Assembly: GCA_964016885.1 (NCBI GenBank)
Contig: OZ024742.1
Coordinates: 4,340,001 to 4,404,000 of the forward strand
Source: Eledone cirrhosa
Taxonomy: Eukaryota
Length of the DNA: 64,000 nucleotides
Reading direction: 5' to 3'
Part shown: positions 15,013-40,065 of the stretch, in pieces
Position numbering within the stretch: position 1 is the stretch's first letter
Layout: each line of letters opens with the position of its first letter
Notes under the pieces: generated by a model
What the model was told of the DNA's origin: nothing
Seen by the model: only the letters and a program-made list of their open reading frames with translations
Database searches by the model: none
Position numbers and translations under genes: made by a program

Positions 15013-15402
15013 CTGTGTATACGTGTGTTTATGGTTGCATGTTTGTGTGCGTGTGTGAGAAACAGTTTTTTGCGTGTATATATATATATATATATACACA
15101 TTATTAATGGCATTTGGTGAGTCCATATATGTGTGTGTATGTGTGAGTGTATATGTGTGTGTGTATGTGTGAGTGTATGTGTGTGTGAGTGTATAAGTGT
15201 GTGTGCATGTGTGCGTGTGTATGTGAATGTGTTGGAGGTCACTTGCGTGCATGTGTTGTACATGTGTGTGTGTGCATACATATGTAGATATCTGCATATG
15301 TATACACATACTCCTTTCAGTGTGGTTGTCTGTCGCTAGCTTGCAGGAACGTGTATTATGTATGTGAGTGTGTCTGTGTGTGTGTGTGTCTGCTGTTTGA
15401 GA

Positions 15403-17135: not shown

Positions 17136-17377
17136 AACCACAAAGCCACGGTCCTTGACACTAAGATGGCATCAAATATGAAATTGCTGTCTCCGATTCT
17201 CTGAAAGATAAAGATACGTCGAATAGTGTTGTATGAGGCGTGTATGTATATATGTGTATGCGTGTATGTATGTATATGTGTGTGTGCGTGTATGTATGTG
17301 TGTGTGTATGTATGTGTGTGTATGCATGTGTGTGCGTATATGTGTGTATGTGCGTGTGTATGTATGTATCTATATAT

Positions 17378-17820
17378 GTCGGGTCACTCTAGAGTGCTAC
17401 TGGTAACAACCTGTCGCATGGTCGGGTCGTCGGCGACTAAACCGGTAACCCCACCAAGTTTACTTGGTGAGGAGGGTGATTTTGGACACCCTGCAGGACA
17501 AAAAACAAAACCTGACAAAGGGCGGAAGAACTCATAAGAGTCAACGGCCATCCGAAATTGTGTAAATATGTATATAGACATATACCGCCTGGTTAAACCA
17601 CTGGGAGCGAAGGACCCCTAGCCTTTGTTAGGACATTCTTCTAGGAGAAGGCAACTCAGGAAACTGGGATAACTCCGATATAAAACCTGCGGCTCAGTAG
17701 TTACCGATGATGTTGAACTTCTCTTCTTTTCGGGTTATAGCTACTGTCGCCCAGAGAGTGGGATTGGCTCAGTGCACAGTCTTTCTTCACTTTAAAAAAT
17801 ATCTTCATGCACAGGCATTG
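17378..17820 (+). mobile_element. 5' region of an RTE-like non-LTR retroelement, copy 1
   Basis: Motifs GGCGACTAAAC, CTAGGAGAAGGCAACTC..AAACC and GTGGGATTGGCTCAGTGCAC..CACTTTAAAAA..GCACAGGC resemble RTE-clade 5' UTRs (from recall). A homologous second copy lies at about 18050-18240. Confidence 0.6.
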
Positions 17821-18049
17821 CACGATAGAATTAATTAATAATTATTAATAATGGTATACCGTGCAACGAGGGGGCAGCCATCATGTATATATGTATGTAT
17901 GTGTGTATGTATGGGTGTATATGTGTATGTATGTGTGTGTATGTGTGCATGTGTGTATGTATGTGTGTATGTATGTGTGTATATGTATGTATGTATGTGT
18001 ATGTGTGCGTATGTATGTATGTGTGTGTATGCGTGTGTGTCCAGGGAGA

Positions 18050-18240
18050 GACATGGATAAGCTCGGTTTGGTGTCTGAGTGAATGGTTGCCCCACTGAAA
18101 GTGAGCGACACCTAGTTATTGTTAAGACATTCTAGGAGAAGGAAAACTGAAGTGACGCGATGGCAGCCAATGATGTTGACCTTGATACCTGTCACTGTTG
18201 GTCAGAGAGTGGGATTGATCCAGTGTAAGGCCTTGTCACT
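18050..18240 (+). mobile_element. Diverged second copy of the same element, running directly into the satellite
   Basis: Collinear blocks shared with copy 1: CCACTG, CCTAG, TTGTTA(A/G)GACATTCT, CTAGGAGAAGG.AA, ATGATGTTGA.CTT, then ACTGT....CAGAGAGTGGGATTG. Confidence 0.75.
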
Positions 18241-21200
18241 GTTGGTCAGAGAGTGGGATTGGTCCAGTGTAAGGTCTTGTCACTGTTGGTCAGAGAGTAG
18301 GATTGGTCCAGTGTAAGGCCTTGTCACTGTTGGTCAGAGAGTGGGATTGGTCCAATGTAAGGCCTTGTCACTGTTGGTCAGAGAGTGGGATTGGTCCAAT
18401 GTAAGGCCTTGTAACTGTTGGTCAGAGAGTAGGATTGGTCCAATGTAAGGCCTTGTCACTGTTGGTCAGAGAGTGGGATTGGTCCAATGTAAGGCCTTGT
18501 CACTGTTGGTCAGAGAGTAGGATTGGTCCAATGTAAGGCCTTGTCACTGTTGGTCAGAGAGTAGGATTGGTCCAGTGTAAGGCCTTGTCACTGTTGGTCA
18601 GAGACTGGGATTGGTCCAATGTAAGGCCTTGTCACTGTTGGTCAGAGAGTGGGATTGATCCAGTGTAAGGCCTTGTCACTGTTGGTCAGAGAGTAGGATT
18701 GGTCCAATGTAAGGCCTTGTCACTGATGGTCAGAGAGTAGGATTGGTCCAATGTAAGGCCTTGTCACTGTTGGTCAGAGAGTAGGATTGGTCCAATGTAA
18801 GGCCTTGTCACTGTTGGTCAGAGAGTAGGATTGGTCCAGTGTAAGGCCTTGTCACTGTTGGTCAGAGAGTAGGATTGGTCCAATGTAAGGCCTTGTCACT
18901 GTTGGTCAGAGAGTAGGATTGGTCCAATGTAAGGCCTTGTCACTGTTGGTCAGAGAGTAGGATTGGTCCAATGTAAGGCCTTGTCACTGTTGGTCAGAGA
19001 GTAGGATTGGTCCAATGTAAGGCCTTGTCACTGTTGGTCAGAGAGTAGGATTGGTCCAATGTAAGGCCTTGTCACTGTTGGTCAGAGAGTAGGATTGGTC
19101 CAATGTAAGGCCTTGTCACTGTTGGTCAGAGAGTAGGATTGGTCCAATGTAAGGCCTTGTCACTGATGGTCAGAGAGTAGGATTGGTCCAGTGTAAGGCC
19201 TTGTAACTGTTGGTCAGAGAGTAGGATTGGTCCAATGTAAGGCCTTGTCACTGTTGGTCAGAGAGTAGGATTGGTCCAATGTAAGGCCTTGTCACTGTTG
19301 GTCAGAGAGTAGGATTGGTCCAATGTAAGGCCTTGTCACTGATGGTCAGAGAGTAGGATTGGTCCAGTGTAAGGCCTTGTAACTGTTGGTCAGAGAGTAG
19401 GATTGGTCCAATGTAAGGCCTTGTCACTGTTGGTCAGAGAGTAGGATTGGTCCAATGTAAGGCCTTGTCACTGTTGGTCAGAGAGTAGGATTGGTCCAAT
19501 GTAAGGCCTTGTCACTGTTGGTCAGTGAGTAGGATTGGTCCAATGTAAGGCCTTGTCACTGATGGTCAGAGAGTAGGATTGGTCCAGTGTAAGGCCTTGT
19601 AACTGTTGGTCAGAGAGTAGGATTGGTCCAGTGTAAGGCCTTGTAACTGTTGGTCAGAGAGTAGGATTGGTCCAATGTAAGGCCTTGTAACTGTTGGTCA
19701 GTGAGTAGGATTGGTCCAGTGTAAGGCCTTGTCACTGTTGGTCAGAGAGTAGGATTGGTCCAATGTAAGGCCTTGTAACTGTTGGTCAGAGAGTAGGATT
19801 GGTCCAGTGTAAGGCCTTGTAACTGTTGGTCAGTGAGTAGGATTGGTCCAGTGTAAGGCCTTGTCACTGTTGGTCAGAGAGTAGGATTGGTCCAATGTAA
19901 GGCCTTGTAACTGTTGGTCAGAGAGTAGGATTGGTCCAGTGTAAGGCCTTGTCACTGTTGGTCAGAGAGTATGATTGGTCCAGTGTAAGGCCTTGTCACT
20001 GTTGGTCAGTGAGTAGGATTGGTCCAGTGTAAGGCCTTGTCACTGTTGGTCAGAGAGTAGAATTGGTCCAGTGTAAGGCCTTGTCACTGTTGGTCAGAGA
20101 GTAGGATTGGTCCAATGTAAGGCCTTGTCACTGTTGGTCAGTGAATAGGATTGGTCCAGTGTAAGGCCTTGTCACTGTTGGTCAGAGATAGGATTGGTCC
20201 AGTGTAAGGCCTTGTCACTGTTGGTCAGTGAGTAGGATTGGTCCAGTGTAAGGCCTTGTCACTGTTGGTCAGAGAGTAGGATTGGTCCAGGGTAAGGCCT
20301 TGTCACTGTTGGTCAGAGAGTAGGATTGGTCCAGTGTAAGGCCTTGTCACTGTTGGTCAGAGAGTAGGATTGGTCCAATGTAAGGCCTTGTCACTGTTGG
20401 TCAGAGAGTAGGATTGGTCCAATGTAAGGCCTTGTCACTGTTGGTCAGAGAGTAGGATTGGTCCAATGTAAGGCCTTGTCACTGTTGGTCAGAGAGTAGG
20501 ATTGGTTCAATGTAAGGCCTTGTCACTGTTGGTCAGAGAGTAGGATTGGTCCAATGTAAGGCCTTGTCACTGATGGTCAGAGAGTAGGATTGGTCCAATG
20601 TAAGGCCTTGTCACTGTTGGTCAGAGAGTAGGATTGGTCCAATGTAAGGCCTTGTCACTGTTGGTCAGAGAGTAGGATTGGTTCAATGTAAGGCCTTGTC
20701 ACTGTTGGTCAGAGAGTAGGATTGGTCCAATGTAAGGCCTTGTCACTGATGGTCAGAGAGTAGGATTGGTCCAATGTAAGGCCTTGTCACTGTTGGTCAG
20801 AGAGTAGGATTGGTCCAATGTAAGGCCTTGTCACTGTTGGTCAGAGAGTAGGATTGGTCCAATGTAAGGCCTTGTCACTGATGGTCAGAGAGTAGGATTG
20901 GTCCAATGTAAGGCCTTGTCACTGATGGTCAGAGAGTAGGATTGGTCCAATGTAAGGCCTTGTCACTGATGGTCAGAGAGTAGGATTGGTCCAATGTAAG
21001 GCCTTGTCACTGTTGGTCAGAGAGTAGGATTGGTCCAATGTAAGGCCTTGTCACTGATGGTCAGAGAGTAGGATTGGTCCAATGTAAGGCCTTGTCACTG
21101 TTGGTCAGAGAGTAGGATTGGTCCAGTGTAAGGCCTTGTCACTGTTGGTCAGAGAGTAGGATTGGTCCAGTGTAAGGCCTTGTCACTGTTGGTCAGAGAG

Positions 21201-24200
21201 TAGGATTGGTCCAATGTAAGGCCTTGTCACTGTTGGTCAGAGAGTAGGATTGGTCCAATGTAAGGCCTTGTCACTGTTGGTCAGAGAGTAGGATTGGTCC
21301 AATGTAAGGCCTTGTCACTGTTGGTCAGAGAGTAGGATTGGTCCAATGTAAGGCCTTGTCACTGTTGGTCAGAGAGTAGGATTGGTCCAATGTAAGGCCT
21401 TGTCACTGTTGGTCAGAGAGTAGGATTGGTCCAGTGTAAGGCCTTGTCACTGTTGGTCAGAGAGTAGGATTGGTCCAATGTAAGGCCTTGTCACTGATGG
21501 TCAGAGAGTAGGATTGGTCCAATGTAAGGCCTTGTCACTGTTGGTCAGAGAGTAGGATTGGTCCAATGTAAGGCCTTGTCACTGTTGGTCAGAGAGTAGG
21601 ATTGGTCCAGTGTAAGGCCTTGTCACTGTTGGTCAGAGAGTAGGATTGGTCCAATGTAAGGCCTTGTCACTGTTGGTCAGAGAGTAGGATTGGTCCAATG
21701 TAAGGCCTTGTCACTGTTGGTCAGAGAGTAGGATTGGTCCAGTGTAAGGCCTTGTCACTGTTGGTCAGAGAGTAGGATTGGTCCAATGTAAGGCCTTGTC
21801 ACTGTTGGTCAGAGAGTAGGATTGGTCCAGTGTAAGGCCTTGTAACTGTTGGTCAGAGAGTAGGATTGGTCCAATGTAAGGCCTTGTAACTGTTGGTCAG
21901 TGAGTAGGATTGGTCCAGTGTAAGGCCTTGTCACTGTTGGTCAGAGAGTAGGATTGGTCCAGTGTAAGGCCTTGTCACTGTTGGTCAGTGAGTAGGATTG
22001 GTCCAGTGTAAGGCCTTGTCACTGTTGGTCAGAGAGTAGGATTGGTCCAGTGTAAGGCCTTGTCACTGTTGGTCAGAGAGTAGAATTGGTCCAATGTAAG
22101 GCCTTGTCACTGTTGGTCAGTGAGTAGGATTGGTCTAGTGTAAGGCCTTGTCACTGTTGGTCAGAGATAGGATTGGTCCAGTGTAAGGCCTTGTCACTGT
22201 TGGTCAGTGAGTAGGATTGGTCCAGTGTAAGGCCTTGTCACTGTTGGTCAGAGAGTAGGATTGGTCCAGTGTAAGGCCTTGTCACTGTTGGTCAGAGAGT
22301 AGGATTGGTCCAGTGTAAGGCCTTGTCACTGTTGGTCAGAGAGTAGGATTGGTCCAATGTAAGGCCTTGTCACTGTTGGTCAGAGAGTAGGATTGGTCCA
22401 ATGTAAGGCCTTGTCACTGTTGGTCAGAGAGTAGGATTGGTCCAATGTAAGGCCTTGTCACTGTTGGTCAGAGAGTAGGATTGGTCCAATGTAAGGCCTT
22501 GTCACTGTTGGTCAGAGAGTAGGATTGGTCCAATGTAAGGCCTTGTCACTGTTGGTCAGAGAGTAGGATTTGTCCAATGTAAGGCCTTGTCACTGATGGT
22601 CAGAGAGTAGGATTGGTCCAATGTAAGGCCTTGTCACTGTTGGTCAGAGAGTAGGATTGGTCCAATGTAAGGCCTTGTCACTGTTGGTCAGAGAGTAGGA
22701 TTGGTCCAATGTAAGGCCTTGTCAGTTGGTCAGAGAGTAGGATTGGTCCAATGTAAGGCCTTGTCACTGTTGGTCAGAGAGTAGGATTGGTCCAATGTAA
22801 GGCCTTGTCACTGTTGGTCAAAGAGTAGGATTGGTCCAATGTAAGGCCTTGTCACTGTTGGTCAGAGAGTAGGATTGGTCCAGTGTAAGGGCTTGTAACT
22901 GTTGGTCAGTGAGTAGGATTGGTCCAGTGTAAGGCCTTGTCACTGTTGGTCAGAGAGTAGGATTGGTCCAGTGTAAGGCCTTGTCACTGTTGGTCAGAGA
23001 GTAGGATTGGTCCAATGTAAGGCCTTGTCACTGTTGGTCAGTGAGTAGGATTGGTCCAGTGTAAGGCCTTGTCACTGTTGGTCAGAGATAGGATTGGTCC
23101 AGTGTAAGGACTTGTCGCTGTTGGTCAGTGAGTAGGATTGGTCCAGTGTAAGGCCTTGTCACTGTTGGTCAGAGAGTAGGATTGGTCCAGTGTAAGGCCT
23201 TGTCACTGTTGGTCAGAGAGTAGGATTGGTCCAGTGTAAGGCCTTGTCACTGTTGGTCAGAGAGTAGGATTGGTCCAGTGTAAGGCCTTGTCACTGTTGG
23301 TCAGAGAGTAGGATTGGTCCAGTGTAAGGCCTTGTCACTGTTGGTCAGTGAGTAGGATTGGTCCAGTGTAAGGCCTTGTCACTGTTGGTCAGAGAGTAGG
23401 ATTGGTCCAGTGTAAGGCCTTGTCACTGTTGGTCAGAGAGTAGGATTGGTCCAGTGTAAGGCCTTGTCACTGTTGGTCAGTGAGTAGGATTGGTCCAGTG
23501 TAAGGCCTTGTCACTGTTGGTCAGAGAGTAGGATTGGTCCAGTGTAAGGCCTTGTCACTGTTGGTCAGAGAGTAGGATTGGTCCAATGTAAGGCCTTGTC
23601 ACTGTTGGTCAGTGAGTAGGATTGGTCCAGTGTAAGGCCTTGTCACTGTTGGTCAGAGATAGGATTGGTCCAGTGTAAGGCCTTGTCACTGTTGGTCAGT
23701 GAGTAGGATTGGTCCAGTGTAAGGCCTTGTCACTGTTGGTCAGAGAGTAGGATTGGTCCAGTGTAAGGCCTTGTCACTGTTGGTCAGAGAGTAGGATTGG
23801 TCCAGTGTAAGGCCTTGTCACTGTTGGTCAGAGAGTAGGATTGGTCCAATGTAAGGCCTTGTCACTGTTGGTCAGAGAGTAGGATTGGTCCAATGTAAGG
23901 CCTTGTCACTGTTGGTCAGAGAGTAGGATTGGTCCAATGTAAGGCCTTGTCACTGTTGGTCAGAGAGTAGGATTGGTTCAATGTAAGGTCTTGTCACTGT
24001 TGGTCAGAGAGTAGGATTGGTCCAATGTAAGGCCTTGTCACTGTTGGTCAGACAGTAGGATCGGTCCAATGTAAGGCCTTGTCACTGTTGGTCAGAGAGT
24101 AGGATTGGTCCAATGTAAGGCCTTGTCACTGTTGGTCAGAGAGTAGGATTGGTCCAATGTAAGGCCTTGTCACTGTTGGTCAGAGAGTAGGATTGGTCCA

Positions 24201-27200
24201 ATGTAAGGCCTTGTCACTGTTGGTCAGAGAGTAGGATTGGTCCAATGTAAGGCCTTGTCACTGTTGGTCAGAGAGTAGCATTGGTCCAGTGTAAGGCCTT
24301 GTCACTGTTGGTCAGAGAGTAGGATTGGTCCAGTGTAAGGCCTTGTCACTGTTGGTCAGAGAGTAGGATTGGTCCAATGTAAGGCCTTGTCACTGTTGGT
24401 CAGAGAGTAGGATTGGTCCAATGTAAGGCCTTGTCACTGTTGGTCAGAGAGTAGGATTGGTCCAATGTAAGGCCTTGTCACTGTTGGTCAGAGAGTAGGA
24501 TTGGTCCAATGTAAGGCCTTGTCACTGTTGGTCAGAGAGTAGGATTGGTCCAATGTAAGGCCTTGTCACTGTTGGTCAGAGAGTAGGATTGGTCCAGTGT
24601 AAGGCCTTGTCACTGTTGGTCAGAGAGTAGGATTGGTCCAATGTAAGGCCTTGTCACTGATGGTCAGAGAGTAGGATTGGTCCAATGTAAGGCCTTGTCA
24701 CTGTTGGTCAGAGAGTAGGATTGGTCCAATGTAAGGCCTTGTCACTGTTGGTCAGAGAGTAGGATTGGTCCAATGTAAGGCCTTGTAACTGTTGGTCAGA
24801 GAGTAGGATTGGTCCAGTGTAAGGCCTTGTCACTGTTGGTCAGAGAGTAGGATTGGTCCAGTGTAAGGCCTTGTCACTGTTGGTCAGTGAGTAGGATTGG
24901 TCCAGTGTAAGGCCTTGTCACTGTTGGTCAGAGAGTAGGATTGGTCCAGTGTAAGGCCTTGTCACTGTTGGTCAGAGAGTAGGATTGGTCCAATGTAAGG
25001 CCTTGTCACTGTTGGTCAGAGAGTAGGATTGGTCCAATGTAAGGCCTTGTCACTGTTGGTCAGAGAGTAGGATTGGTCCAATGTAAGGCCTTGTAACTGT
25101 TGGTCAGAGAGTAGGATTGGTCCAGTGTAAGGCCTTGTCACTGTTGGTCAGAGAGTAGGATTGGTCCAGTGTAGGGCCTTGTCACTGTTGGTCAGTGAGT
25201 AGGATTGGTCCAGTGTAAGGCCTTGTCACTGTTGGTCAGAGAGTAGGATTGGTCCAGTGTAAGGCCTTGTCACTGTTGGTCAGAGAGTAGGATTGGTCCA
25301 ATGTAAGGCCTTGTCACTGTTGGTCAGTGAGTAGGATTGGTCCAGTGTAAGGCCTTGTCACTGTTGGTCAGAGATAGGATTGGTCCAGTGTAAGGCCTTG
25401 TCACTGTTGGTCAGTGAGTAGGATTGGTCCAGTGTAAGGCCTTGTCACTGTTGGTCAGAGAGTAGGATTGGTCCAGTGTAAGGCCTTGTCACTGTTGGTC
25501 AGAGAGTAGGATTGGTCCAATGTAAGGCCTTGTCACTGTTGGTCAGAGAGTAGGATTGGTCCAATGTAAGGCCTTGTCACTGTTGGGCAGAGAGTAGGAT
25601 TGGTCCAATGTAAGGCCTTGTCACTGTTGGTCAGAGAGTAGGATTGGTTCAATGTAAGGCCTGGTCACTGTTGGTCAGAGAGTAGGATTGGTCCAATGTA
25701 AGGCCTTGTCACTGTTGGTCAGAGAGTAGGATTGGTCCAATGTAAGGCCTTGTCACTGATGGTCAGAGAGTAGGATTGGTCCAATGTAAGGCCTTGTCAC
25801 TGTTGTCAGAGAGTAGGATTGGTCCAATGTAAGGCCTTGTCACTGTTGGTCAGAGAGTAGGATTGGTCCAATGTAAGGCCTTGTCACTGTTGGTCAGAGA
25901 GTAGGATTGGTCCAGTGTAAGGCCTTGTCACTGTTGGTCAGAGAGTAGGATTGGTCCAATGTAAGGCCTTGTCACTGTTGGTCAGAGAGTAGGATTGGTC
26001 CAATGTAAGGCATTGTCACTGTTGGTCAGAGAGTAGGATTGGTCCAATGTAAGGCCTTGTCACTGTTGGTCAGAGAGTAGGATTGGTCCAGTGTAAGGCC
26101 TTGTCACTGTTGGTCAGAGAGTAGGATTGGTCCAGTGTAAGGCCTTGTCACTGTTGGTCAGAGAGTAGGATTGGTCCAATGTAAGGCCTTGTCACTGTTG
26201 GTCAGAGAGTAGGATTGGTCCAATGTAAGGCCTTGTCACTGTTGGTCAGAGAGTAGGATTGGTCCAATGTAAGGCCTTGTCACTGTTGGTCAGAGAGTAG
26301 GATTGGTCCAATGTAAGGCCTTGTCACTGTTGGTCAGAGAGTAGGATTGGTCCAATGTAAGGCCTTGTCACTGTTGGTCAGAGAGTAGGATTGGTCCAGT
26401 GTAAGGCCTTGTCACTGTTGGTCAGAGAGTAGGATTGGTCCAATGTAAGGCCTTGTCACTGATGGTCAGAGAGTAGGATTGGTCCAATGTAAGGCCTTGT
26501 CACTGTTGGTCAGAGAGTAGGATTGGTCCAATATAAGGCCTTGTCACTGTTGGTCAGAGAGTAGGATTGGTCCAGTGTAAGGCCTTGTCACTGTTGGTCA
26601 GAGAGTAGGATTGGTCCAATGTAAGGCCTTGTCACTGTTGGTCAGAGAGTAGGATTGGTCCAATGTAAGGCCTTGTCACTGTTGGTCAGAGAGTAGGATT
26701 GGTCCAGTGTAAGGCCTTGTCACTGTTGGTCAGAGAGTAGGATTGGTCCAATGTAAGGCCTTGTCACTGTTGGTCAGAGAGTAGGATTGGTCCAGTGTAA
26801 GGCCTTGTAACTGTTGGTCAGAGAGTAGGATTGGTCCAATGTAAGGCCTTGTAACTGTTGGTCAGTGAGTAGGATTGGTCCAGTGTAAGGCCTTGTCACT
26901 GTTGGTCAGAGAGTGGGATTGGTCCAGTGTAAGGCCTTGTCACTGTTGGTCAGTGAGTAGGATTGGTCCAGTGTAAGGCCTTGTCACTGTTGGTCAGAGA
27001 GTAGGATTGGTCCAATGTAAGGCCTTGTCACTGTTGGTCAGAGAGTAGGATTGGTCCAGTGTAAGGCCTTGTCACTGTTGGTCAGAGAGTAGGATTGGTC
27101 CAATGTAAGGCCTTGTCACTGTTGGTCAGTGAGTAGGATTGGTCTAGTGTAAGGCCTTGTCACTGTTGGTCAGAGATAGGATTGGTCCAGTGTAAGGCCT

Positions 27201-30200
27201 TGTCACTGTTGGTCAGAGAGTAGGATTGGTCCAATGTAAGGCCTTGTCACTGTTGGTCAGTGAGTAGGATTGGTCCAATGTAAGGCCTTGTAACTGTTGG
27301 TCAGAGAGTAGGATTGGTCCAGTGTAAGGCCTTGTCACTGTTGGTCAGAGAGTAGGATTGGTCCAGTGTAGGGCCTTGTCACTGTTGGTCAGTGAGTAGG
27401 ATTGGTCCAGTGTAAGGCCTTGTCACTGTTGGTCAGAGAGTAGGATTGGTCCAGTGTAAGGCCTTGTCACTGTTGGTCAGAGAGTAGGATTGGTCCAATG
27501 TAAGGCCTTGTCACTGTTGGTCAGTGAGTAGGATTGGTCCAGTGTAAGGCCTTGTCACTGTTGGTCAGAGATAGGATTGGTCCAGTGTAAGGCCTTGTCA
27601 CTGTTGGTCAGTGAGTAGGATTGGTCCAGTGTAAGGCCTTGTCACTGTTGGTCAGAGAGTAGGATTGGTCCAGTGTAAGGCCTTGTCACTGTTGGTCAGA
27701 GAGTAGGATTGGTCCAATGTAAGGCCTTGTCACTGTTGGTCAGAGAGTAGGATTGGTCCAATGTAAGGCCTTGTCACTGTTGGGCAGAGAGTAGGATTGG
27801 TCCAATGTAAGGCCTTGTCACTGTTGGTCAGAGAGTAGGATTGGTTCAATGTAAGGCCTGGTCACTGTTGGTCAGAGAGTAGGATTGGTCCAATGTAAGG
27901 CCTTGTCACTGTTGGTCAGAGAGTAGGATTGGTCCAATGTAAGGCCTTGTCACTGATGGTCAGAGAGTAGGATTGGTCCAATGTAAGGCCTTGTCACTGT
28001 TGTCAGAGAGTAGGATTGGTCCAATGTAAGGCCTTGTCACTGTTGGTCAGAGAGTAGGATTGGTCCAATGTAAGGCCTTGTCACTGTTGGTCAGAGAGTA
28101 GGATTGGTCCAGTGTAAGGCCTTGTCACTGTTGGTCAGAGAGTAGGATTGGTCCAATGTAAGGCCTTGTCACTGTTGGTCAGAGAGTAGGATTGGTCCAA
28201 TGTAAGGCATTGTCACTGTTGGTCAGAGAGTAGGATTGGTCCAATGTAAGGCCTTGTCACTGTTGGTCAGAGAGTAGGATTGGTCCAGTGTAAGGCCTTG
28301 TCACTGTTGGTCAGAGAGTAGGATTGGTCCAGTGTAAGGCCTTGTCACTGTTGGTCAGAGAGTAGGATTGGTCCAATGTAAGGCCTTGTCACTGTTGGTC
28401 AGAGAGTAGGATTGGTCCAATGTAAGGCCTTGTCACTGTTGGTCAGAGAGTAGGATTGGTCCAATGTAAGGCCTTGTCACTGTTGGTCAGAGAGTAGGAT
28501 TGGTCCAATGTAAGGCCTTGTCACTGTTGGTCAGAGAGTAGGATTGGTCCAATGTAAGGCCTTGTCACTGTTGGTCAGAGAGTAGGATTGGTCCAGTGTA
28601 AGGCCTTGTCACTGTTGGTCAGAGAGTAGGATTGGTCCAATGTAAGGCCTTGTCACTGATGGTCAGAGAGTAGGATTGGTCCAATGTAAGGCCTTGTCAC
28701 TGTTGGTCAGAGAGTAGGATTGGTCCAATATAAGGCCTTGTCACTGTTGGTCAGAGAGTAGGATTGGTCCAGTGTAAGGCCTTGTCACTGTTGGTCAGAG
28801 AGTAGGATTGGTCCAATGTAAGGCCTTGTCACTGTTGGTCAGAGAGTAGGATTGGTCCAATGTAAGGCCTTGTCACTGTTGGTCAGAGAGTAGGATTGGT
28901 CCAGTGTAAGGCCTTGTCACTGTTGGTCAGAGAGTAGGATTGGTCCAATGTAAGGCCTTGTCACTGTTGGTCAGAGAGTAGGATTGGTCCAGTGTAAGGC
29001 CTTGTAACTGTTGGTCAGAGAGTAGGATTGGTCCAATGTAAGGCCTTGTAACTGTTGGTCAGTGAGTAGGATTGGTCCAGTGTAAGGCCTTGTCACTGTT
29101 GGTCAGAGAGTGGGATTGGTCCAGTGTAAGGCCTTGTCACTGTTGGTCAGTGAGTAGGATTGGTCCAGTGTAAGGCCTTGTCACTGTTGGTCAGAGAGTA
29201 GGATTGGTCCAATGTAAGGCCTTGTCACTGTTGGTCAGAGAGTAGGATTGGTCCAGTGTAAGGCCTTGTCACTGTTGGTCAGAGAGTAGGATTGGTCCAA
29301 TGTAAGGCCTTGTCACTGTTGGTCAGTGAGTAGGATTGGTCTAGTGTAAGGCCTTGTCACTGTTGGTCAGAGATAGGATTGGTCCAGTGTAAGGCCTTGT
29401 CACTGTTGGTCAGAGAGTAGGATTGGTCCAATGTAAGGCCTTGTCACTGTTGGTCAGTGAGTAGGATTGGTCCAGTGTAAGGCCTTGTCACTGTTGGTCA
29501 GAGATAGGATTGGTCCAGTGTAAGGACTTGTCGCTGTTGGTCAGTGAGTAGGATTGGTCCAGTGTAAGACCTTGTCACTGTTGGTCAGAGAGTAGGATTG
29601 GTCCAGTGTAAGGCCTTGTCACTGTTGGTCAGAGAGTAGGATTGGTCCAGTGTAAGGCCTGGTCACTGTTGTTCAGAGAGTAGGATTGGTCCAATGTAAG
29701 GCCTTGTCACTGTTGGTCAGAGAGTAGGATTGGTCCAATGTAAGGCCTTGTCACTGTTGGTCAGAGAGTAGGATTGGTCCAGTGTAAGGCCTTGTCACTG
29801 TTGGTCAGAGAGTAGGATTGGTCCAATGTAAGGCCTTGTCACTGTTGGTCAGAGAGTAGGATTGGTCCAGTGTAAGGCCTTGTAACTGTTGGTCAGAGAG
29901 TAGGATTGGTCCAGTGTAAGTCCTTGTAACTGTTGGTCAGTGAGTAGGATTGGTCCAGTGTAAGGCCTTGTCACTGTTGGTCAGAGAGTAGGATTGGTCC
30001 AGTGTAAGGCCTTGTAACTGTTGGTCAGAGAGTAGGATTGGTCCAGTGTAAGGCCTTGTCACTGTTGGTCAGAGAGTAGGATTGGTCCAGTGTAAGGCCT
30101 TGTCACTGTTGGTCAGTGAGTAGGATTGGTCCAGTGTAAGGCCTTGTCACTGTTGGTCAGAGAGTAGGATTGGTCCAGTGTAAGGCCTTGTCACTGTTGG

Positions 30201-32580
30201 TCAGAGAGTAGGATTGGTCCAATGTAAGGCCTTGTCACTGTTGGTCAGTGAGTAGGATTGGTCCAGTGTAAGGCCTTGTCACTGTTGGTCAGAGATAGGA
30301 TTGGTCCAGTGTAAGGCCTTGTCACTGTTGGTCAGTGAGTAGGATTGGTCCAGTGTAAGGCCTTGTCACTGTTGGTCAGAGAGTAGGATTGGTCCAGTGT
30401 AAGGTCTTGTCACTGTTGGTCAGAGAGTAGGATTGGTCCAGTGTAAGGCCTTGTCACTGTTGGTCTGAGAGTAGGATTGGTCCAATGTAAGGCCTTGTCA
30501 CTGTTGGTCAGAGAGTAGGATTGGTCCAATGTAAGGCCTTGTCACTGTTGGTCAGAGAGTAGGATTGGTCCAATGTAAGACCTTGTCACTGTTGGTCACA
30601 GAGTAGGATTGGTTCAATGTAAGGCCTTGTCACTGTTGGTCAGAGAGTAGGATTGGTCCAATGTAAGGCCTTGTCACTGTTGGTCAGAGAGTAGGATTGG
30701 TCCAATGTAAGGCCTTGTCACTGTTGGTCAGAGAGTAGGATTGGTCCAGTGTAAGGCCTTGTCACTGTTGGTCAGAGAGTAGGATTGGTCCAATGTAAGG
30801 CCTTGTAACTGTTGGTCAGAGAGTAGGATTGGTCCAATGTAAGGCCTTGTAACTGTTGGTCAGTGAGTAGGATTGGTCCAGTGTAAGGCCTTGTCACTGT
30901 AGGTCAGAGAGTAGGATTGGTCCAGTGTAAGGCCTTGTAACTGTTGGTCAGAGAGTAGGATTGGTCCAGTATAAGGCCTTGTCACTGTTGGTCAGAGAGT
31001 AGGATTGGGCCAGTGTAAGGCCTTGTCACTGTTGGTCAGTGAGTAGGATTGGTCCAGTGTAAGGCCTTGTCACTGTTGGTCAGAGAGTAGGATTGGTCCA
31101 GTGTAAGGCCTTGTCACTGTTGGTCAGAGATAGGATTGGTCCAGTGTAAGGCCTTGTCGCTGTTGGTCAGTGAGTAGGATTGGTCCAGTGTAAGGCCTTG
31201 TCACTGTTGGTCAGAGATAGGATTGGTCCAGTGTAAGGCCTTGTCACTGTTGGTCAGTGAGTAGGATTGGTCCAGTGTAAGGCCTTGTCACTGTTGGTCA
31301 GAGAGTAGGATTGGTCCAGTGTAAGGCCTTGTCACTGTTGGTCAGAGAGTAGGATTGGTCCAGTGTAAGGCCTTGTCACTGTTGGTCAGAGAGTAGGATT
31401 GGTCCAGTGTAAGGCCTTGTCACTGTTGGTCAGAGAGTAGGATTGGTCCAGTGTAAGGCCTTGTCACTGTTGGTCAGAGAGTAGGATTGGTCCAGTGTAA
31501 GGCCTTGTCACTGTTGGTCAGAGAGTAGGATTGGTCCAATGTAAGGCCTTGTCACTGTTGGTCAGAGAGTAGGATTGGTCCAATGTAAGGCCTTGTCACT
31601 GTTGGTCAGAGAGTAGGATTGGTCCAATGTAAGGCCTTGTCACTGTTGGTCAGAGAGTAGGATTGGTCCAGTGTAAGGCCTTGTCACTGTTGGTCAGAGA
31701 GTAGGATTGGTCCAATGTAAGGCCTTGTCACTTTTGGTCAGAGAGTAGGATTGGTCCAATGTAAGGCCTTGTCACTGTTGGTCAGAGAGTAGGATTGGTC
31801 CAATGTAAGGCCTTGTCACTGTTGGTCAGAGAGTAGGATTTGTCCAATGTAAGGCCTTGTCACTGATGGTCAGAGAGTAGGATTGGTCCAATGTAAGGCC
31901 TTGTCACTGTTGGTCAGAGAGTAGGATTGGTCCAATGTAAGGCCTTGTCACTGTTGGTCAGAGAGTAGGATTGGTCCAATGTAAGGCCTTGTCACTGTTG
32001 GTCAGAGAGTAGGATTGGTCCAGTGTAAGGGCTTGTAACTGTTGGTCAGTGAGTAGGATTGGTCCAGTGTAAGGCCTTGTCACTGTTGGTCAGAGAGTAG
32101 GATTGGTCCAGTGTAAGGCCTTGTCACTGTTGGTCAGAGAGTAGGATTGGTCCAATGTAAGGCCTTGTCACTGTTGGTCAGTGAGTAGGATTGGTCCAGT
32201 GTAAGGCCTTGTCACTGTTGGTCAGAGATAGGATTGGTCCAGTGTAAGGCCTTGTCGCTGTTGGTCAGTGAGTAGGATTGGTCCAGTGTAAGGCCTTGTC
32301 ACTGTTGGTCAGAGAGTAGGATTGGTCCAGTGTAAGGCCTTGTCACTGTTGGTCAGAGAGTAGGATTGGTCCAGTGTAAGGCCTTGTCACTGTTGGTCAG
32401 AGATAGGATTGGTCCAGTGTAAGGCCTTGTCACTGTTGGTCAGAGAGTAGAATTGGTCCAGTGTAAGGCGATGTCACTGTTGGTCAGAGAGTAGGATTGG
32501 TCCAGTGTAAGGCCTTGCCACTGTTGGTCAAAGAGTAGGATTGGTCCAGTGTTAAGGCCTTATCACTGTTGGTCAGAGAG
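18190..32580. repeat. Satellite, homogeneous 44-bp layer (about 325 monomers): GTCACTGTTGGTCAGAGAGTAGGATTGGTCCA(A/G)TGTAAGGCCTT
   Basis: Head-to-tail 44-mers with a few recurrent variant positions; count estimated from length. Confidence 0.98.
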
Positions 32581-34950
32581 TGGGATTGGTACAGTGTAAG
32601 GCCTTTCTTGTCACTGTTGGTCAGAGAGTGGTGTTTGTCCAGTGTAAGGCCTTTCTTGTCACTGTTGGTCAGAGAGTGGAATTGGTCCAGTGTAAGGCCT
32701 TGTCACTGTTGGTCACAGAGTGGGGTTTGTCCAGTTTAAGGCCTTATTTGTCACTGTTGTTCAGAGAATGGGATTGGTCCAGTGTAAGGCCTTGTTCATG
32801 TTGGTGACAGATTCGAATTGGTCCAGTGTAAGGCCTTTCTTGTCAATGTTGGTCAGAGAGTGGGATTTGTCCAGTGTAAGGCCTTGTTCATGTTGGTCCC
32901 AGATTGGGATTGGTCCAGTGTAAGGCCTTTCTTGTCACTGTTGGTCACAGAGTGGGGTTTGTGCAGTGTAAGGCCTTTCTTGTCACTGTTGGTCAGAGAG
33001 TGGGATTTGTCCAGTGTAAGGCCTTGTTCATGTTGGTCCCAGATTGGGATTGGTCCAGTGTAAGGCCTTTCTTGTCACTGTTGGTCACAGAGTGGGGTTT
33101 GTCCGGTGTAAGGCCTTTCTTGTCAATGTTGGTCAGAGAGTGGGATTGGTCCAGGGTAAGGCCTTGTCACTGTTGGTCACAGATTGGGATTGGTCGAGTG
33201 TAAGGCCTTTCTTGTCACTGTTGGTCAGAGCATGGGAATGGTCTAGTGTAAGGCATTTTCACTGTTGGTCAGAGAGTGGGATTGGTCCAGTGTAAGGCCT
33301 TTCTTTTCACTGTTGGTCATAGAAGGGATTGGTGCAGTGTAAGGCTTTTCTTCTCATGTTGGTCAGAGAATTGGTCCAGTGTAAGGTATTGTCACTATTG
33401 TTCAGGGTGGGATTGGTCCAGTTTAAAGCCTTATCACTGTTGGTCAGAGAGTGGAATTGGTCCAGTGTAAGGCCTTGTCACTGTTGGTCACAGAGTGGGG
33501 TTTGTCCAGTTTAAGGCCCTATTTGTCACTGTTGTTCAGAGAGTGGGATTGGTCAAGTGTAAGGCCTTGTTCATGTTGGTGACAGATTCGAATTGGTCCA
33601 GTGTAAGGCCTTTCTTGTCAATGTTGGTCAGAGAGTGGGATAGGTCCAATGTAAGGCCTTGTCACTGTTGGTCAGAGAGTTTCATTGGTCCAATGTAAGG
33701 CCTTGTCACTGTTGGTCAGAGAGTGTGATTGGTCCAATGTAAGGCCTTTCTTGTCACTGTTGGTCAGATAATGGGATTGGTCCACTATAAGGCCTTTCTT
33801 GTCATTGTTGGTCAGAGAGTGGGAGTGGTCCAGTGTATGGCCTTTCTTGCTACTGTTCGTCAGAGAATGGGAATGGTCCAGTGTAAGGCATTGTCACAGT
33901 TGGTCAGAGAGTGGGATTGGTCCAGTGTAAGTACTTTCGTGTCTCTGTTGGTCAGAGAGTGGGATTGGTACAGTGTAAGTACTTTCGTGTCTCTGTTTGT
34001 CAGAGAGTGGAATTGGTCCAGTGTAAGGCCTTTCTTGTCACTGTTTGTCAGAGAGTGGGATTGGTCCTGTGTAAGGCCTTGTCACTGTTGGTCAGAGAGT
34101 GGGATTGGTCCAGTGTAAGGCCTTGTCACTGTTGGTCAGAGAGTTTCATTGGTCCAATGTAAGGCCTTGTCACTGTTGGTCAGAGAGTGTGATTTGTCCA
34201 ATGTAAGGCCTTGTCACTGTTGGTCAGAGTGTGATTGGACCAGTGTAAGGCCTTGTCAATGTTGGTCACAGAGTGGGATTGGTCCAGTGTAAGGCCTTTC
34301 TTGTCACTGTTGATCAGAGAATGGGATTGGTTCAGTGTTAAGGCCTTTCTTGTCACTGTTGGTCAGAGAAAGGGATTGGTCCAGTGTAAGGCATTTCTTG
34401 TCACTGTTGGTCAGAGAATGGGATTGGTCCAGTGTAAGGCCTTTCTTGTCACTGTTGGTCAGAGAATGGGATTGGTCCAGTGTAAGGCCTTGTCACTGTT
34501 GGTCAGAGTGGTATTGGTCCAGTGTAATGACTTTCTTGTCACTGTTGGTCAGAGAATGGGATTGGTCCAGTGTAAGGCCTTGTCACTGTTGATCAGAGTG
34601 GGATTGGTCCAGTGTAAGACCTTTCTTGTCACTGTTGGTCAGAGAATGGGATTGGTCCAGTGTAAGGCCTTGTCACTGTTGGTCAGAGAGTGGCATTGGT
34701 CCAGTGTGAGACCTTTCTTGTCACTGTTGGTCAGAGTGGGATTGGTCCAGTGTAAGGTCTTTCTTGATACTGTTGGTCAGAGAATGGGATTGGTCCAGTG
34801 TAAGGCCTTGTCACTGTTGGTCACAGATTGGGATTGGTCCAGTGTAAGGCCTTTCTTGTCACTGTTGGTCACAGAGTGGGGTTTGTCCAGTGTAAGGCCT
34901 TTCTTGTCACTGTTGGTCAGATATTGGGATTGGTCCAGTGTAAAGCCTTG
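32581..34950. repeat. Satellite, diverged 44/48-bp block (duplicate of 40066-42435)
   Basis: Monomers with GCCTTTCTT (48 bp) and GTGGGATT; a matching ORF series recurs 7485 bp downstream. Confidence 0.95.
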
Positions 34951-37900
34951 TCACTGTTGGTCAGAGAGTAGGATTGGTCCAGTGTAAGGCCTTGTCACTG
35001 TTGGTCAGAGATAGGATTGGTCCAGTGTAAGGCCTTGTCACTGTTGGTCAGTGAGTAGGATTGGTCCAGTGTAAGGCCTTGTCACTGTTGGTCAGAGAGT
35101 AGGATTGGTCCAGTGTAAGGCCTTGTCACTGTTGGTCAGAGAGTAGGATTGGTCCAGTGTAAGGCCTTGTCACTGTTGGTCAGAGAGTAGGATTGGTCCA
35201 ATGTAAGGCCTTGTCACTGTTGGTCAGAGAGTAGGATTGGTCCAATGTAAGGCCTTGTCACTGTTGGGCAGAGAGTAGGATTGGTCCAATGTAAGGCCTT
35301 GTCACTGTTGGTCAGAGAGTAGGATTGGTTCAATGTAAGGCCTGGTCACTGTTGGTCAGAGAGTAGGATTGGTCCAATGTAAGGCCTTGTCACTGTTGGT
35401 CAGAGAGTAGGATTGGTCCAATGTAAGGCCTTGTCACTGATGGTCAGAGAGTAGGATTGGTCCAATGTAAGGCCTTGTCACTGATGGTCAGAGAGTAGGA
35501 TTGGTCCAATGTAAGGCCTTGTCACTGTTGGTCAGAGAGTAGGATTGGTCCAATGTAAGGCCCTTGTCACTGTTGGTCAGAGAGTAGGATTGGTCCAGTG
35601 TAAGGCCTTGTCACTGTTGGTCAGAGAGTAGGATTGGTCCAATGTAAGGCCTTGTCACTGTTGGTCAGAGAGTAGGATTGGTCCAATGTAAGGCATTGTC
35701 ACTGTTGGTCAGAGAGTAGGATTGGTCCAATGTAAGGCCTTGTCACTGTTGGTCAGAGAGTAGGATTGGTCCAGTGTAAGGCCTTGTCACTGTTGGTCAG
35801 AGAGTAGGATTGGTCCAGTGTAAGGCCTTGTCACTGTTGGTCAGAGAGTAGGATTGGTCCATGTAAGGCCTTGTCACTGTTGGTCAGAGAGTAGGATTGG
35901 TCCAATGTAAGGCCTTGTCACTGTTGGTCAGAGAGTAGGATTGGTCCAATGTAAGGCCTTGTCACTGTTGGTCAGAGAGTAGGATTGGTCCAATGTAAGG
36001 CCTTGTCACTGTTGGTCAGAGAGTAGGATTGGTCCAATGTAAGGCCTTGTCACTGTTGGTCAGAGAGTAGGATTGGTCCAGTGTAAGGCCTTGTCACTGT
36101 TGGTCAGAGAGTAGGATTGGTCCAATGTAAGGCCTTGTCACTGATGGTCAGAGAGTAGGATTGGTCCAATGTAAGGCCTTGTCACTGTTGGTCAGAGAGT
36201 AGGATTGGTCCAATATAAGGCCTTGTCACTGTTGGTCAGAGAGTAGGATTGGTCCAGTGTAAGGCCTTGTCACTGTTGGTCAGAGAGTAGGATTGGTCCA
36301 ATGTAAGGCCTTGTCACTGTTGGTCAGAGAGTAGGATTGGTCCAATGTAAGGCCTTGTCACTGTTGGTCAGAGAGTAGGATTGGTCCAGTGTAAGGCCTT
36401 GTCACTGTTGGTCAGAGAGTAGGATTGGTCCAATGTAAGGCCTTGTCACTGTTGGTCAGAGAGTAGGATTGGTCCAGTGTAAGGCCTTGTAACTGTTGGT
36501 CAGAGAGTAGGATTGGTCCAATGTAAAGCCTTGTAACTGTTGGTCAGTGAGTAGGATTGGTCCAGTGTAAGGCCTTGTCACTGTTGGTCAGAGAGTGGGA
36601 TTGGTCCAGTGTAAGGCCTTGTCACTGTTGGTCAGTGAGTAGGATTGGTCCAGTGTAAGGCCTTGTCACTGTTGGTCAGAGAGTAGGATTGGTCCAATGT
36701 AAGGCCTTGTCACTGTTGGTCAGAGAGTAGGATTGGTCCAGTGTAAGGCCTTGTCACTGTTGGTCAGAGAGTAGGATTGGTCCAATGTAAGGCCTTGTCA
36801 CTGTTGGTCAGTGAGTAGGATTGGTCTAGTGTAAGGCCTTGTCACTGTTGGTCAGAGATAGGATTGGTCCAGTGTAAGGCCTTGTCACTGTTGGTCAGAG
36901 AGTAGGATTGGTCCAATGTAAGGCCTTGTCACTGTTGGTCAGTGAGTAGGATTGGTCCAGTGTAAGGCCTTGTCACTGTTGGTCAGAGATAGGATTGGTC
37001 CAGTGTAAGGACTTGTCGCTGTTGGTCAGTGAGTAGGATTGGTCCAGTGTAAGACCTTGTCACTGTTGGTCAGAGAGTAGGATTGGTCCAGTGTAAGGCC
37101 TTGTCACTGTTGGTCAGAGAGTAGGATTGGTCCAGTGTAAGGCCTGGTCACTGTTGTTCAGAGAGTAGGATTGGTCCAATGTAAGGCCTTGTCACTGTTG
37201 GTCAGAGAGTAGGATTGGTCCAATGTAAGGCCTTGTCACTGTTGGTCAGAGAGTAGGATTGGTCCAGTGTAAGGCCTTGTCACTGTTGGTCAGAGAGTAG
37301 GATTGGTCCAATGTAAGGCCTTGTCACTGTTGGTCAGAGAGTAGGATTGGTCCAGTGTAAGGCCTTGTAACTGTTGGTCAGAGAGTAGGATTGGTCCAGT
37401 GTAAGTCCTTGTAACTGTTGGTCAGTGAGTAGGATTGGTCCAGTGTAAGGCCTTGTCACTGTTGGTCAGAGAGTAGGATTGGTCCAGTGTAAGGCCTTGT
37501 AACTGTTGGTCAGAGAGTAGGATTGGTCCAGTGTAAGGCCTTGTCACTGTTGGTCAGAGAGTAGGATTGGTCCAGTGTAAGGCCTTGTCACTGTTGGTCA
37601 GTGAGTAGGATTGGTCCAGTGTAAGGCCTTGTCACTGTTGGTCAGAGAGTAGGATTGGTCCAGTGTAAGGCCTTGTCACTGTTGGTCAGAGAGTAGGATT
37701 GGTCTAATGTAAGGCCTTGTCACTGTTGGTCAGTGAGTAGGATTGGTCCAGTGTAAGGCCTTGTCACTGTTGGTCAGAGATAGGATTGGTCCAGTGTAAG
37801 GCCTTGTCACTGTTGGTCAGTGAGTAGGATTGGTCCAGTGTAAGGCCTTGTCACTGTTGGTCAGAGAGTAGGATTGGTCCAGTGTAAGGCCTTGTCACTG

Positions 37901-40065
37901 TTGGTCAGAGAGTAGGATTGGTCCAGTGTAAGGCCTTGTCACTGTTGGTCTGAGAGTAGGATTGGTCCAATGTAAGGCCTTGTCACTGTTGGTCAGAGAG
38001 TAGGATTGGTCCAATGTAAGGCCTTGTCACTGTTGGTCAGAGAGTAGGATTGGTCCAATGTAAGACCTTGTCACTGTTGGTCACAGAGTAGGATTGGTTC
38101 AATGTAAGGCCTTGTCACTGTTGGTCAGAGAGTAGGATTGGTCCAATGTAAGGCCTTGTCACTGTTGGTCAGAGAGTAGGATTGGTCCAATGTAAGGCCT
38201 TGTCACTGTAGGTCAGAGAGTAGGATTGGTCCAGTGTAAGGCCTTGTCACTGTTGGTCAGAGAGTAGGATTGGTCCAATGTAAGGCCTTGTAACTGTTGG
38301 TCAGAGAGTAGGATTGGTCCAATGTAAGGCCTTGTAACTGTTGGTCAGTGAGTAGGATTGGTCCAGTGTAAGGCCTTGTCACTGTAGGTCAGAGAGTAGG
38401 ATTGGTCCAGTGTAAGGCCTTGTAACTGTTGGTCAGAGAGTAGGATTGGTCCAGTATAAGGCCTTGTCACTGTTGGTCAGAGAGTAGGATTGGGCCAGTG
38501 TAAGGCCTTGTCACTGTTGGTCAGTGAGTAGGATTGGTCCAGTGTAAGGCCTTGTCACTGTTGGTCAGAGAGTAGGATTGGTCCAGTGTAAGGCCTTGTC
38601 ACTGTTGGTCAGAGATAGGATTGGTCCAGTGTAAGGCCTTGTCGCTGTTGGTCAGTGAGTAGGATTGGTCCAGTGTAAGGCCTTGTCACTGTTGGTCAGA
38701 GATAGGATTGGTCCAGTGTAAGGCCTTGTCACTGTTGGTCAGTGAGTAGGATTGGTCCAGTGTAAGGCCTTGTCACTGTTGGTCAGAGAGTAGGATTGGT
38801 CCAGTGTAAGGCCTTGTCACTGTTGGTCAGAGAGTAGGATTGGTCCAGTGTAAGGCCTTGTCACTGTTGGTCAGAGAGTAGGATTGGTCCAGTGTAAGGC
38901 CTTGTCACTGTTGGTCAGAGAGTAGGATTGGTCCAGTGTAAGGCCTTGTCACTGTTGGTCAGAGAGTAGGATTGGTCCAGTGTAAGGCCTTGTCACTGTT
39001 GGTCAAAGAGTAGGATTGGTCCAATGTAAGGCCTTGTCACTGTTGGTCAGAGAGTAGGATTGGTCCAATGTAAGGCCTTGTCACTGTTGGTCAGAGAGTA
39101 GGATTGGTCCAATGTAAGGCCTTGTCACTGTTGGTCAGAGAGTAGGATTGGTCCAGTGTAAGGCCTTGTCACTGTTGGTCAGAGAGTAGGATTGGTCCAA
39201 TGTAAGGCCTTGTCACTTTTGGTCAGAGAGTAGGATTGGTCCAATGTAAGGCCTTGTCACTGTTGGTCAGAGAGTAGGATTGGTCCAATGTAAGGCCTTG
39301 TCACTGTTGGTCAGAGAGTAGGATTTGTCCAATGTAAGGCCTTGTCACTGATGGTCAGAGAGTAGGATTGGTCCAATGTAAGGCCTTGTCACTGTTGGTC
39401 AGAGAGTAGGATTGGTCCAATGTAAGGCCTTGTCACTGTTGGTCAGAGAGTAGGATTGGTCCAATGTAAGGCCTTGTCACTGTTGGTCAGAGAGTAGGAT
39501 TGGTCCAGTGTAAGGGCTTGTAACTGTTGGTCAGTGAGTAGGATTGGTCCAGTGTAAGGCCTTGTCACTGTTGGTCAGAGAGTAGGATTGGTCCAGTGTA
39601 AGGCCTTGTCACTGTTGGTCAGAGAGTAGGATTGGTCCAATGTAAGGCCTTGTCACTGTTGGTCAGTGAGTAGGATTGGTCCAGTGTAAGGCCTTGTCAC
39701 TGTTGGTCAGAGATAGGATTGGTCCAGTGTAAGGCCTTGTCGCTGTTGGTCAGTGAGTAGGATTGGTCCAGTGTAAGGCCTTGTCACTGTTGGTCAGAGA
39801 GTAGGATTGGTCCAGTGTAAGGCCTTGTCACTGTTGGTCAGAGAGTAGGATTGGTCCAGTGTAAGGCCTTGTCACTGTTGGTCAGAGATAGGATTGGTCC
39901 AGTGTAAGGCCTTGTCACTGTTGGTCAGAGAGTAGAATTGGTCCAGTGTAAGGCGATGTCACTGTTGGTCAGAGAGTAGGATTGGTCCAGTGTAAGGCCT
40001 TGCCACTGTTGGTCAAAGAGTAGGATTGGTCCAGTGTTAAGGCCTTATCACTGTTGGTCAGAGAG
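34951..40065. repeat. Satellite, second homogeneous 44-bp block (about 115 monomers; duplicate of about 27470-32580)
   Basis: Same rare variants in the same order at an offset of about 7485. Confidence 0.95.

Follow-up and report, generated by a model that had tools for sequence, protein, structure and literature searches.

The window analyzed here, a 64,000-nucleotide stretch of the Eledone cirrhosa genome (G000:C3:4340001-4404000 of a 3.0-Gb assembly, the single assembly used), contains one tandem array that runs from position 18190 to its end. Just upstream lies a short element with a single-copy segment that resembles the array unit, which raises the question of where this satellite was born and how it came to occupy its present site. 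An earlier note on this DNA had proposed that the array arose in situ from an RTE-like 5′ UTR segment, with the neighboring element as its single-copy progenitor.

Results

The array extends past the window end to G000:C3:4428379. With both ends located, it spans 70.2 kb, so the earlier figure of more than 45 kb was right about a long array but understated its length. Two ways of splitting it give 1,532 and 1,463 units (~1,500). The first part (18190..40000, + strand) is a homogeneous young zone of 44-bp GTAGG units with a pairwise diversity of ~0.03, and it includes a mixed 44/48 block near 32500-34950. From approximately 40000 onward (40000..64000, +, continuing to the far end), the array is an old zone of mostly 48-bp units with a diversity of ~0.11. 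Blocks of ~6 kb are repeated inside the array at offsets of 7,485 and 6,818 bp (28671-34952 recurs 7,485 bp downstream). Folding of the unit compared with shuffled sequences gave no hairpin above background (z of −0.06 to 0.18), and the array behaves as selfish or neutral DNA, with no function implied.

Other repeats were seen in and near the window. A 20-bp minisatellite of ~40 copies lies at 14236-15019, and decayed CAA/CAG repeats with stop-free frames of 170 to 258 codons, rich in Ser/Asn or Thr/Ala, lie at 16012-17150; a tract like the latter is found upstream of the array on C20. An unrelated tandem array of ~13 kb (G000:C3:4536001-4549000; L074-L075) lies 110 kb past the end of the main array.

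The sequence immediately in front of the array (18047..18189, +) is the head of a family-B element. Used as a query, it retrieves copies at 71 to 83% identity, a set distinct from that of the neighboring element's family (family A), and alignment of 44 of the 50 loci found in this way defines a family of ~440 bp with its own head and tail. At least 643 copies were counted with a B-specific pattern that is blind to 44-bp arrays. Single B copies score 73 to 157 against this head, while the neighboring A copy scores 61. At its far end, the array runs straight into a family-B tail (+, to about G000:C3:4428590, beyond the window) followed by (ATGT)n, and thus both ends of the host bracket the array. 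The host head, which carries a remnant of an RTE 5′ UTR domain, is 12.5% diverged and the host tail is 17.6% diverged from the B majority; B copies overall are 12.4% diverged.

The unit, which corresponds to B positions 187-234, agrees with the B column majority at 45 of 48 positions and with single B copies at a mean of 40.4 (35 of the 41 copies being scorable in register); the mean of 38.3 for all 41 copies without gap handling is lowered by indels. The 14 commonest 48-bp units match B at 42 to 44 of 48 positions and the neighboring A copy at 31 to 37, and the 48-bp unit used for matching is present 35 times in the array. These alignments indicate that the 70-kb array was built by amplifying a 48-bp internal segment of family B within a single B copy. 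The proposed origin in an RTE-like 5′ UTR therefore holds insofar as the unit is an internal segment of an RTE-related short element and the array lies inside such an element, but the RTE 5′ UTR domain itself is ~50 bp upstream, and the unit shares one open frame with a zinc finger remnant. The element also resumes beyond the array, a point that the earlier note had put up for checking, but with the tail of B rather than that of the neighbor. Since the single-copy B segment has the 48-bp state and it is the 44-bp GTAGG zone that is homogeneous, sequence comparison supports the earlier view that the 48-bp GTGGG/TTTCT unit is ancestral and the 44-bp GTAGG unit derived.

The neighboring element (17378..17885, +) is a young copy of family A, a cousin of the host. 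The family is about 520 bp long, and two 14-bp pieces are missing from this copy. Its insertion site is a degenerate (ATGT)n/(GT)n tract (17241..17377, +), of a type found upstream of most family-A copies, and a second (ATGT)n-like tract (17883..18040, +) comprises the tail of the A copy and the 5′ flank of the host. Family A is dispersed, as had been claimed, with 4,283 first-look candidates; among 40 scored copies, the other 39 are 92 to 96% identical. The homologue of the unit in the neighbor (17740..17787, +) does match the 48-bp unit at 37 of 48 positions without gaps (best of 200 shuffles, 27 of 48), and a unit-like segment is retained in all 30 family-A copies examined (33 to 38 of 48; mean, 36.4). 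What families A and B have in common is a 228-column middle, 71% identical, and a 3′ end of 41 bases. The collinearity of 18047-18189 with the neighbor is likewise well above chance (score of 61 versus a null maximum of 34 in 1,000 shuffles), but 18047-18189 is not a second copy of that element, as had been supposed; it is part of family B, which is older and differs in head and tail. The CTACTGT/TCACTTT microhomology put forward as the seed of tandem duplication is a feature of family A, not of the host family.

The neighbor is only 3.1% from the family-A majority, below the array's own internal diversity of 11%, and it would thus be a later insertion than the host. An exact-match search of the genome found no family-A tandem junctions. 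A or C copies (family C is described below) lie within 1.5 kb of 7 of the 41 single-B loci, so an A copy beside the host is ordinary.

Families A and B are short and dispersed, have (ATGT)n tails, and lack a full open reading frame. Family C (42,054 candidates) has the same middle and end as A and B, and its copies (L038, L297-L306, and many others) often adjoin A and B in (ATGT)n tracts. At the end of both B and C lies a C2H2 remnant too weak to reach the Pfam cutoff. The ends of A and B elements lie in (ATGT)n tracts, which hide any target site duplications. When compared by eye with the printed supplement of PMC5786205, B has a 23-base run identical to the RTE 5′ UTR domain of the squid OegopSINE, and the same run matches RTE-3_BF at 21 of 23 positions, also by eye. 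From these sequence features, B is likely a bipartite non-autonomous RTE element.

Other assignments fared less well. ARAGORN found no genes in 17300-18400, where a decayed head could be missed, and a tRNA-derived SINE head was set aside on that result; Rfam gave only weak, microsatellite-driven matches in the same interval, none above the gathering score. A MITE or Helentron-type carrier was rejected because terminal inverted repeats were absent from three of three B copies and from the A copy and because the internal tandem occurs at 24 loci versus at least 643 copies. A search for an autonomous partner LINE among 30 RVT_1 loci, 30 DUF6451 loci, and 6 long-frame zinc finger loci yielded none: the 945-codon LINE found by the RVT_1 search ends in (ATT)n and does not match either A or B, the DUF6451 loci have other tails, and the long frames with zinc finger matches are microsatellite. 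The 945-codon LINE is itself abundant and young, with many intact frames (L167-L196), and we take it to be CR1/L2-like.

Searches with the array and the tail revealed 22 further loci with the junction of the window array or a short-indel variant of it, ranging from dimers to ~45 kb. Counting the window, a collinear B head and tail are present at 16 of these 23 loci; the other 7 have B on one side only or are rearranged. In all hosts with an intact head, the array begins at the same point. Unit length is 48 bp or, through short indels, 44-45, 47, or 50 bp, and at a site where every other 48-bp array has CA, the window units read TG. With up to 3 mismatches allowed, the 23 loci account for 127 of 128 reverse and 2,560 of 2,597 forward junction matches, leaving 38 of 2,725 unexplained. 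About 3% of the B copies (at least 643) carry arrays, and more may exist, because the counting pattern misses 44-bp arrays.

As read from the sequence, the common junction has at most 1 to 3 bp of microhomology. A TCAC microhomology in B predicts a 46-bp unit and not the junction of the window array. A search for the 46-bp junction gave 306 matches, and the 100 listed all fall in one array on C10 (C10:26797514-26829940; L277-L280), which spans 32 kb inside a B copy, begins with units of 45 to 46 bp followed by units of 42 bp, and keeps the ancestral CpG. By its sequence this array is probably an independent birth, the alternative being a loss of 2 bp from the 48-bp junction. The genome thus holds other arrays of this unit, as the earlier note had suggested checking, and all of them (22 with the same junction and 1 with a different one) touch B. 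For the claim of an origin in situ, this means that expansion was clearly local but that the seed may be foreign, its junction being common to 22 other loci.

Old dimers occur at C2:88.96 Mb and C10:2.09 Mb and fit a retrotransposed dimer or fresh duplications equally well. One tail change 20 bp from the array is found in 6 of 18 hosts and in 0 of 69 single copies. The arrays tend toward small chromosomes and chromosome ends: only 4 of 21 placed arrays are on the giant chromosomes C1 to C4, versus 36 of 47 perfect-match single B copies (P of about 1e-5; 3e-4 by clusters). This bias would fit a recombination-dependent process if small chromosomes recombine more.

Several arrays have unusual surroundings. 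Near 3600-3880 of L130 (C19, 39.9 of 40.2 Mb), a degenerate TTAGC/TTAGG-like repeat, close to the end of the chromosome, directly adjoins the array, whose 3′ flank also occurs at a C23 locus. At L114 (C8, 41.45 Mb) and L122 (C17, 38.52 Mb), inverted pieces of the host's own head or tail adjoin the arrays, which points to fold-back rearrangement at the array edges. At L131:2625-8342 (+), an open frame of 1,906 codons, probably incidental, runs through a 48-bp (16-codon) array into the zinc finger remnant of the B tail.

In comparing hosts, we used shared derived changes and rejected raw identity, since copies near the family majority look alike. Four host pairs on the same chromosome, 0.07 to 3.3 Mb apart, have derived changes in common beside the array and not in the flanks, and in three of the four, the sharing also ends inside the element. 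One pair consists of the window host and a host at C3:1.05 Mb, 3.3 Mb away and inverted. The heads of these two are 94.6% identical over the 93 array-proximal columns and 65% identical beyond, with 6 shared and 3 private derived changes in the proximal part versus 3 shared and 20 private in the distal part. They also share 3-, 9-, and 12-bp deletions, and the first units of both carry the same rare variants. The shared part of the window head (18084..18189, +; left edge approximate) would represent a conversion tract. In the C3:1.05 Mb host, whose array measures 5.3 kb, a tail is absent from the adjoining 9 kb, which leaves a single tract edge to be read.

The C23 hosts at 1.00 and 1.29 Mb show the pattern on both sides of the array. 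Their identity is 97% over 100 head columns (65% beyond) and 98.5% over 67 tail columns (75% beyond), and the counts of shared and private changes for the proximal versus the distal part are 7/3 versus 0/18 in the head and 6/2 versus 4/28 in the tail. The tails of the C13 hosts at 16.8 and 17.5 Mb are the same at 65 of 66 bases and then diverged (8/1 proximal versus 1/44 distal), and their heads are unrelated. In the C23 hosts at 10.99 and 11.06 Mb, the whole tail is 92% identical and the head is similar over ~38 columns only. A change-point test on 12 head and 12 tail pairs placed 5 at the permutation floor and one at 0.04; the others were not significant. Five of six tract-bearing pairs are inverted, which is too few to claim a bias. 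Most host pairs lack a tract, with mean shared fractions of 0.07 to 0.09 for hosts versus 0.05 to 0.08 for single copies; few shared changes are seen in the C17 pairs or between the C13 heads, and the window tail shares nothing special with any other host. When the flanks of 22 hosts were compared, they were collinear in one pair only (C19/C23c), and segmental duplication was therefore rejected as a general route.

Array-free B copies served as a control. Over the proximal head, single copies have a mean identity of 82% and a maximum of 90% (561 pairs), and the head-proximal shared fraction is ≤0.25 in all 703 pairs. The sole outlier among 820 single tail pairs, L142/L146 (C19, 15.45 and 15.86 Mb), is 0.41 Mb apart and inverted. 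Prompted by this pair, we added 35 single copies chosen for having a neighbor within 5 Mb, giving 2,814 scorable pairs among 76 copies. Patches were present in 5 of 32 near pairs (<5 Mb) and in none of 2,782 distant pairs; without three segmental-copy pairs (L257-L259), they were present in 2 of 29 near pairs, a comparison of small numbers in which the pairs are not independent. The only prospective case (1 of 28 near pairs) is L269/L270 (C2, 393.05 and 393.59 Mb), 0.54 Mb apart and inverted, in which the copies are identical over B positions 177-377, diverged on either side of this ~200-bp stretch, and unrelated in their outer flanks. The control thus reproduces, in few cases, two marks of gene conversion: a high-identity patch within diverged homologous sequence that has unrelated outer flanks, and a patch frequency that falls with distance. 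It does not support a conversion hotspot at the unit, because the arrays and the added single copies were picked on that very segment.

Discussion

A patch with unrelated flanks is the pattern given by nonallelic gene conversion, whereas a retrotransposed or segmentally duplicated copy would bring along the entire element or its flanks. For this reason, we consider it probable that family B gave rise to the seed on only one or a few occasions and that ectopic gene conversion then carried it from one existing B copy to another. In this model, a break within a B copy or next to it would be mended when a strand invades a second B copy, at most a few megabases distant, and 40 to 200 bp of the element would be copied along with any array in between, either by synthesis-dependent annealing or by recombination with an excised circle. 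The array would then grow in place by unequal exchange and duplication of multikilobase blocks, and new variants (44-bp, GTAGG) would sweep from one end. Because it holds an older 48-bp zone and an intact tail, the window array probably served as donor for the 5.3-kb array at C3:1.05 Mb. It may itself descend from a seed born separately, given that its tail shares nothing special with other hosts and its units have TG in place of CA. For the step between chromosomes, the candidates are retrotransposition of an early dimer, conversion over short tracts, and repeated birth, and the tail change restricted to hosts fits either of the first two.

A broader reading of the same data is that dead SINE copies form a network of landing pads, through which arrays move over megabases and between small chromosomes by ectopic conversion and then grow. 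Together with its corollaries (that 40 to 100 bp of 20%-diverged homology is enough, that no retrotransposition is needed, and that arrays reach tens of kilobases), we judge this proposal just as apt to be wrong as right.

The strongest competitor to transfer by conversion is a B master with a short internal tandem that was retrotransposed to all loci, each array then growing alone and homogenization between arrays coming later. It would account for the single junction phase at all intact-head loci, the unrelated host flanks, the two dimers, and the tail change 20 bp from the array in one-third of the hosts scored. However, the hosts lack common element-wide diagnostic changes, the 38 unexplained junctions are few for scattered relic dimers, the hosts cluster locally and avoid chromosomes rich in B copies, and patches that end inside the element are not predicted. 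We regard this master as unlikely to explain all of the loci, although it may have provided the first, between-chromosome step.

Less probable still is that the segment is a duplication hotspot and that every array, including that of the window, was born in its own B copy. The C10:26.80 Mb array, with its different TCAC-microhomology junction and ancestral CpG, speaks for such births, as does the difference between the window units and the others at the CpG site. However, a common junction with at most 1 to 3 bp of microhomology is found again, unchanged or altered by short indels, at 23 loci, multibase deletions are common to pairs, the folding of the unit is ordinary, and the homologous family-A segment gave no junctions (exact matches only). 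For the window and C3:1.05 Mb pair, the hotspot is refuted in that at most one of the two can be an independent birth.

It is very improbable that the shared patches or the array are assembly artifacts (chimeric or collapsed repeats). The data come from one assembly, the near-exact internal duplications of 6.8 and 7.5 kb could be misassembly, and no contig of runs X1 to X3 (three runs of one sample) spans the junction of the window. These three runs contained 0.08 of the words searched, and no RNA run was among those listed. Nevertheless, the patches are 40 to 200 bp long within 440-bp elements that have unique flanks and some private changes, they depend on distance, and the unit has a summed depth of tens of thousands in X1 to X3 versus about 5 to 50 for single contigs, a measure that may not be assembly independent. 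Finally, the family-A neighbor is scarcely credible as the single-copy progenitor, despite its 37/48 match and its above-chance upstream collinearity, because it belongs to another, younger family, matches the unit less well than B does, has no tandem junctions in its family (exact matches only), is the kind of neighbor also found at single-B loci, and lies beside a host whose head and far-end tail are both B; the far-end tail already refutes this reading.

The arrival of a satellite at new loci is usually inferred indirectly. Here, a 70-kb satellite has been caught with the sequence of its birthplace intact on both sides, and each array sits in a 440-bp frame in which old private mutations mark where copying started and ended, with array-free copies as a built-in control. 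A comparison with sister genomes could measure the tract length, range, and direction of satellite spread. In the mainly open-access literature searched, we found no description of this family or of array transfer between SINE copies.

Parts of the process are known from other systems. The element itself resembles the Ceph-SINEs and other bipartite non-autonomous RTE elements described by Kojima in 2018 (PMC5786205, the main text of which does not include octopus): like them, B is short and noncoding, with a microsatellite tail, and it has the 23-base RTE 5′ UTR run of OegopSINE, but we found no tRNA head or autonomous partner for it. SINE-derived satellites include Alu minisatellites, the mouse B1 VNTR family, and salamander Hy/Pol III repeats (PMC9659126, PMC6947457). 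In these, too, an internal segment of a short retroelement is amplified at several loci, and short direct repeats are proposed as seeds. The present array differs in reaching 70 kb with both host ends intact, and the passages of those two papers that treat these repeats do not describe conversion transfer between copies.

Nonallelic conversion between copies of Alu and other transposable elements is raised at distances under 10 kb, according to the relevant part of PMC6598467. Identity patches between dispersed copies that are commoner at short distance are thus a shared feature, but the distances here are 0.07 to 3.3 Mb, the copies are ~20% diverged, and the transfer can carry kilobases of array. 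In Drosophila, the Rsp-like satellite spreads into 1.688 clusters, for which interlocus conversion or reintegration of eccDNA has been proposed (Sproul et al. 2020, PMC7403614). As far as that account goes, the likeness is that a rare tandem repeat gains sites via abundant dispersed homologous sequence and grows by unequal exchange and higher-order blocks. The Drosophila landing sites are another satellite, joined through microhomology, whereas the landing sites in the present case are individual retroelement copies of 440 bp, the unit derives from the element itself, and the tract edges can be read inside the element. Repeats derived from SINEs, conversion between transposable elements, and satellite spread via dispersed homology are thus each known, and it is their combination, with readable tract edges, that is new.
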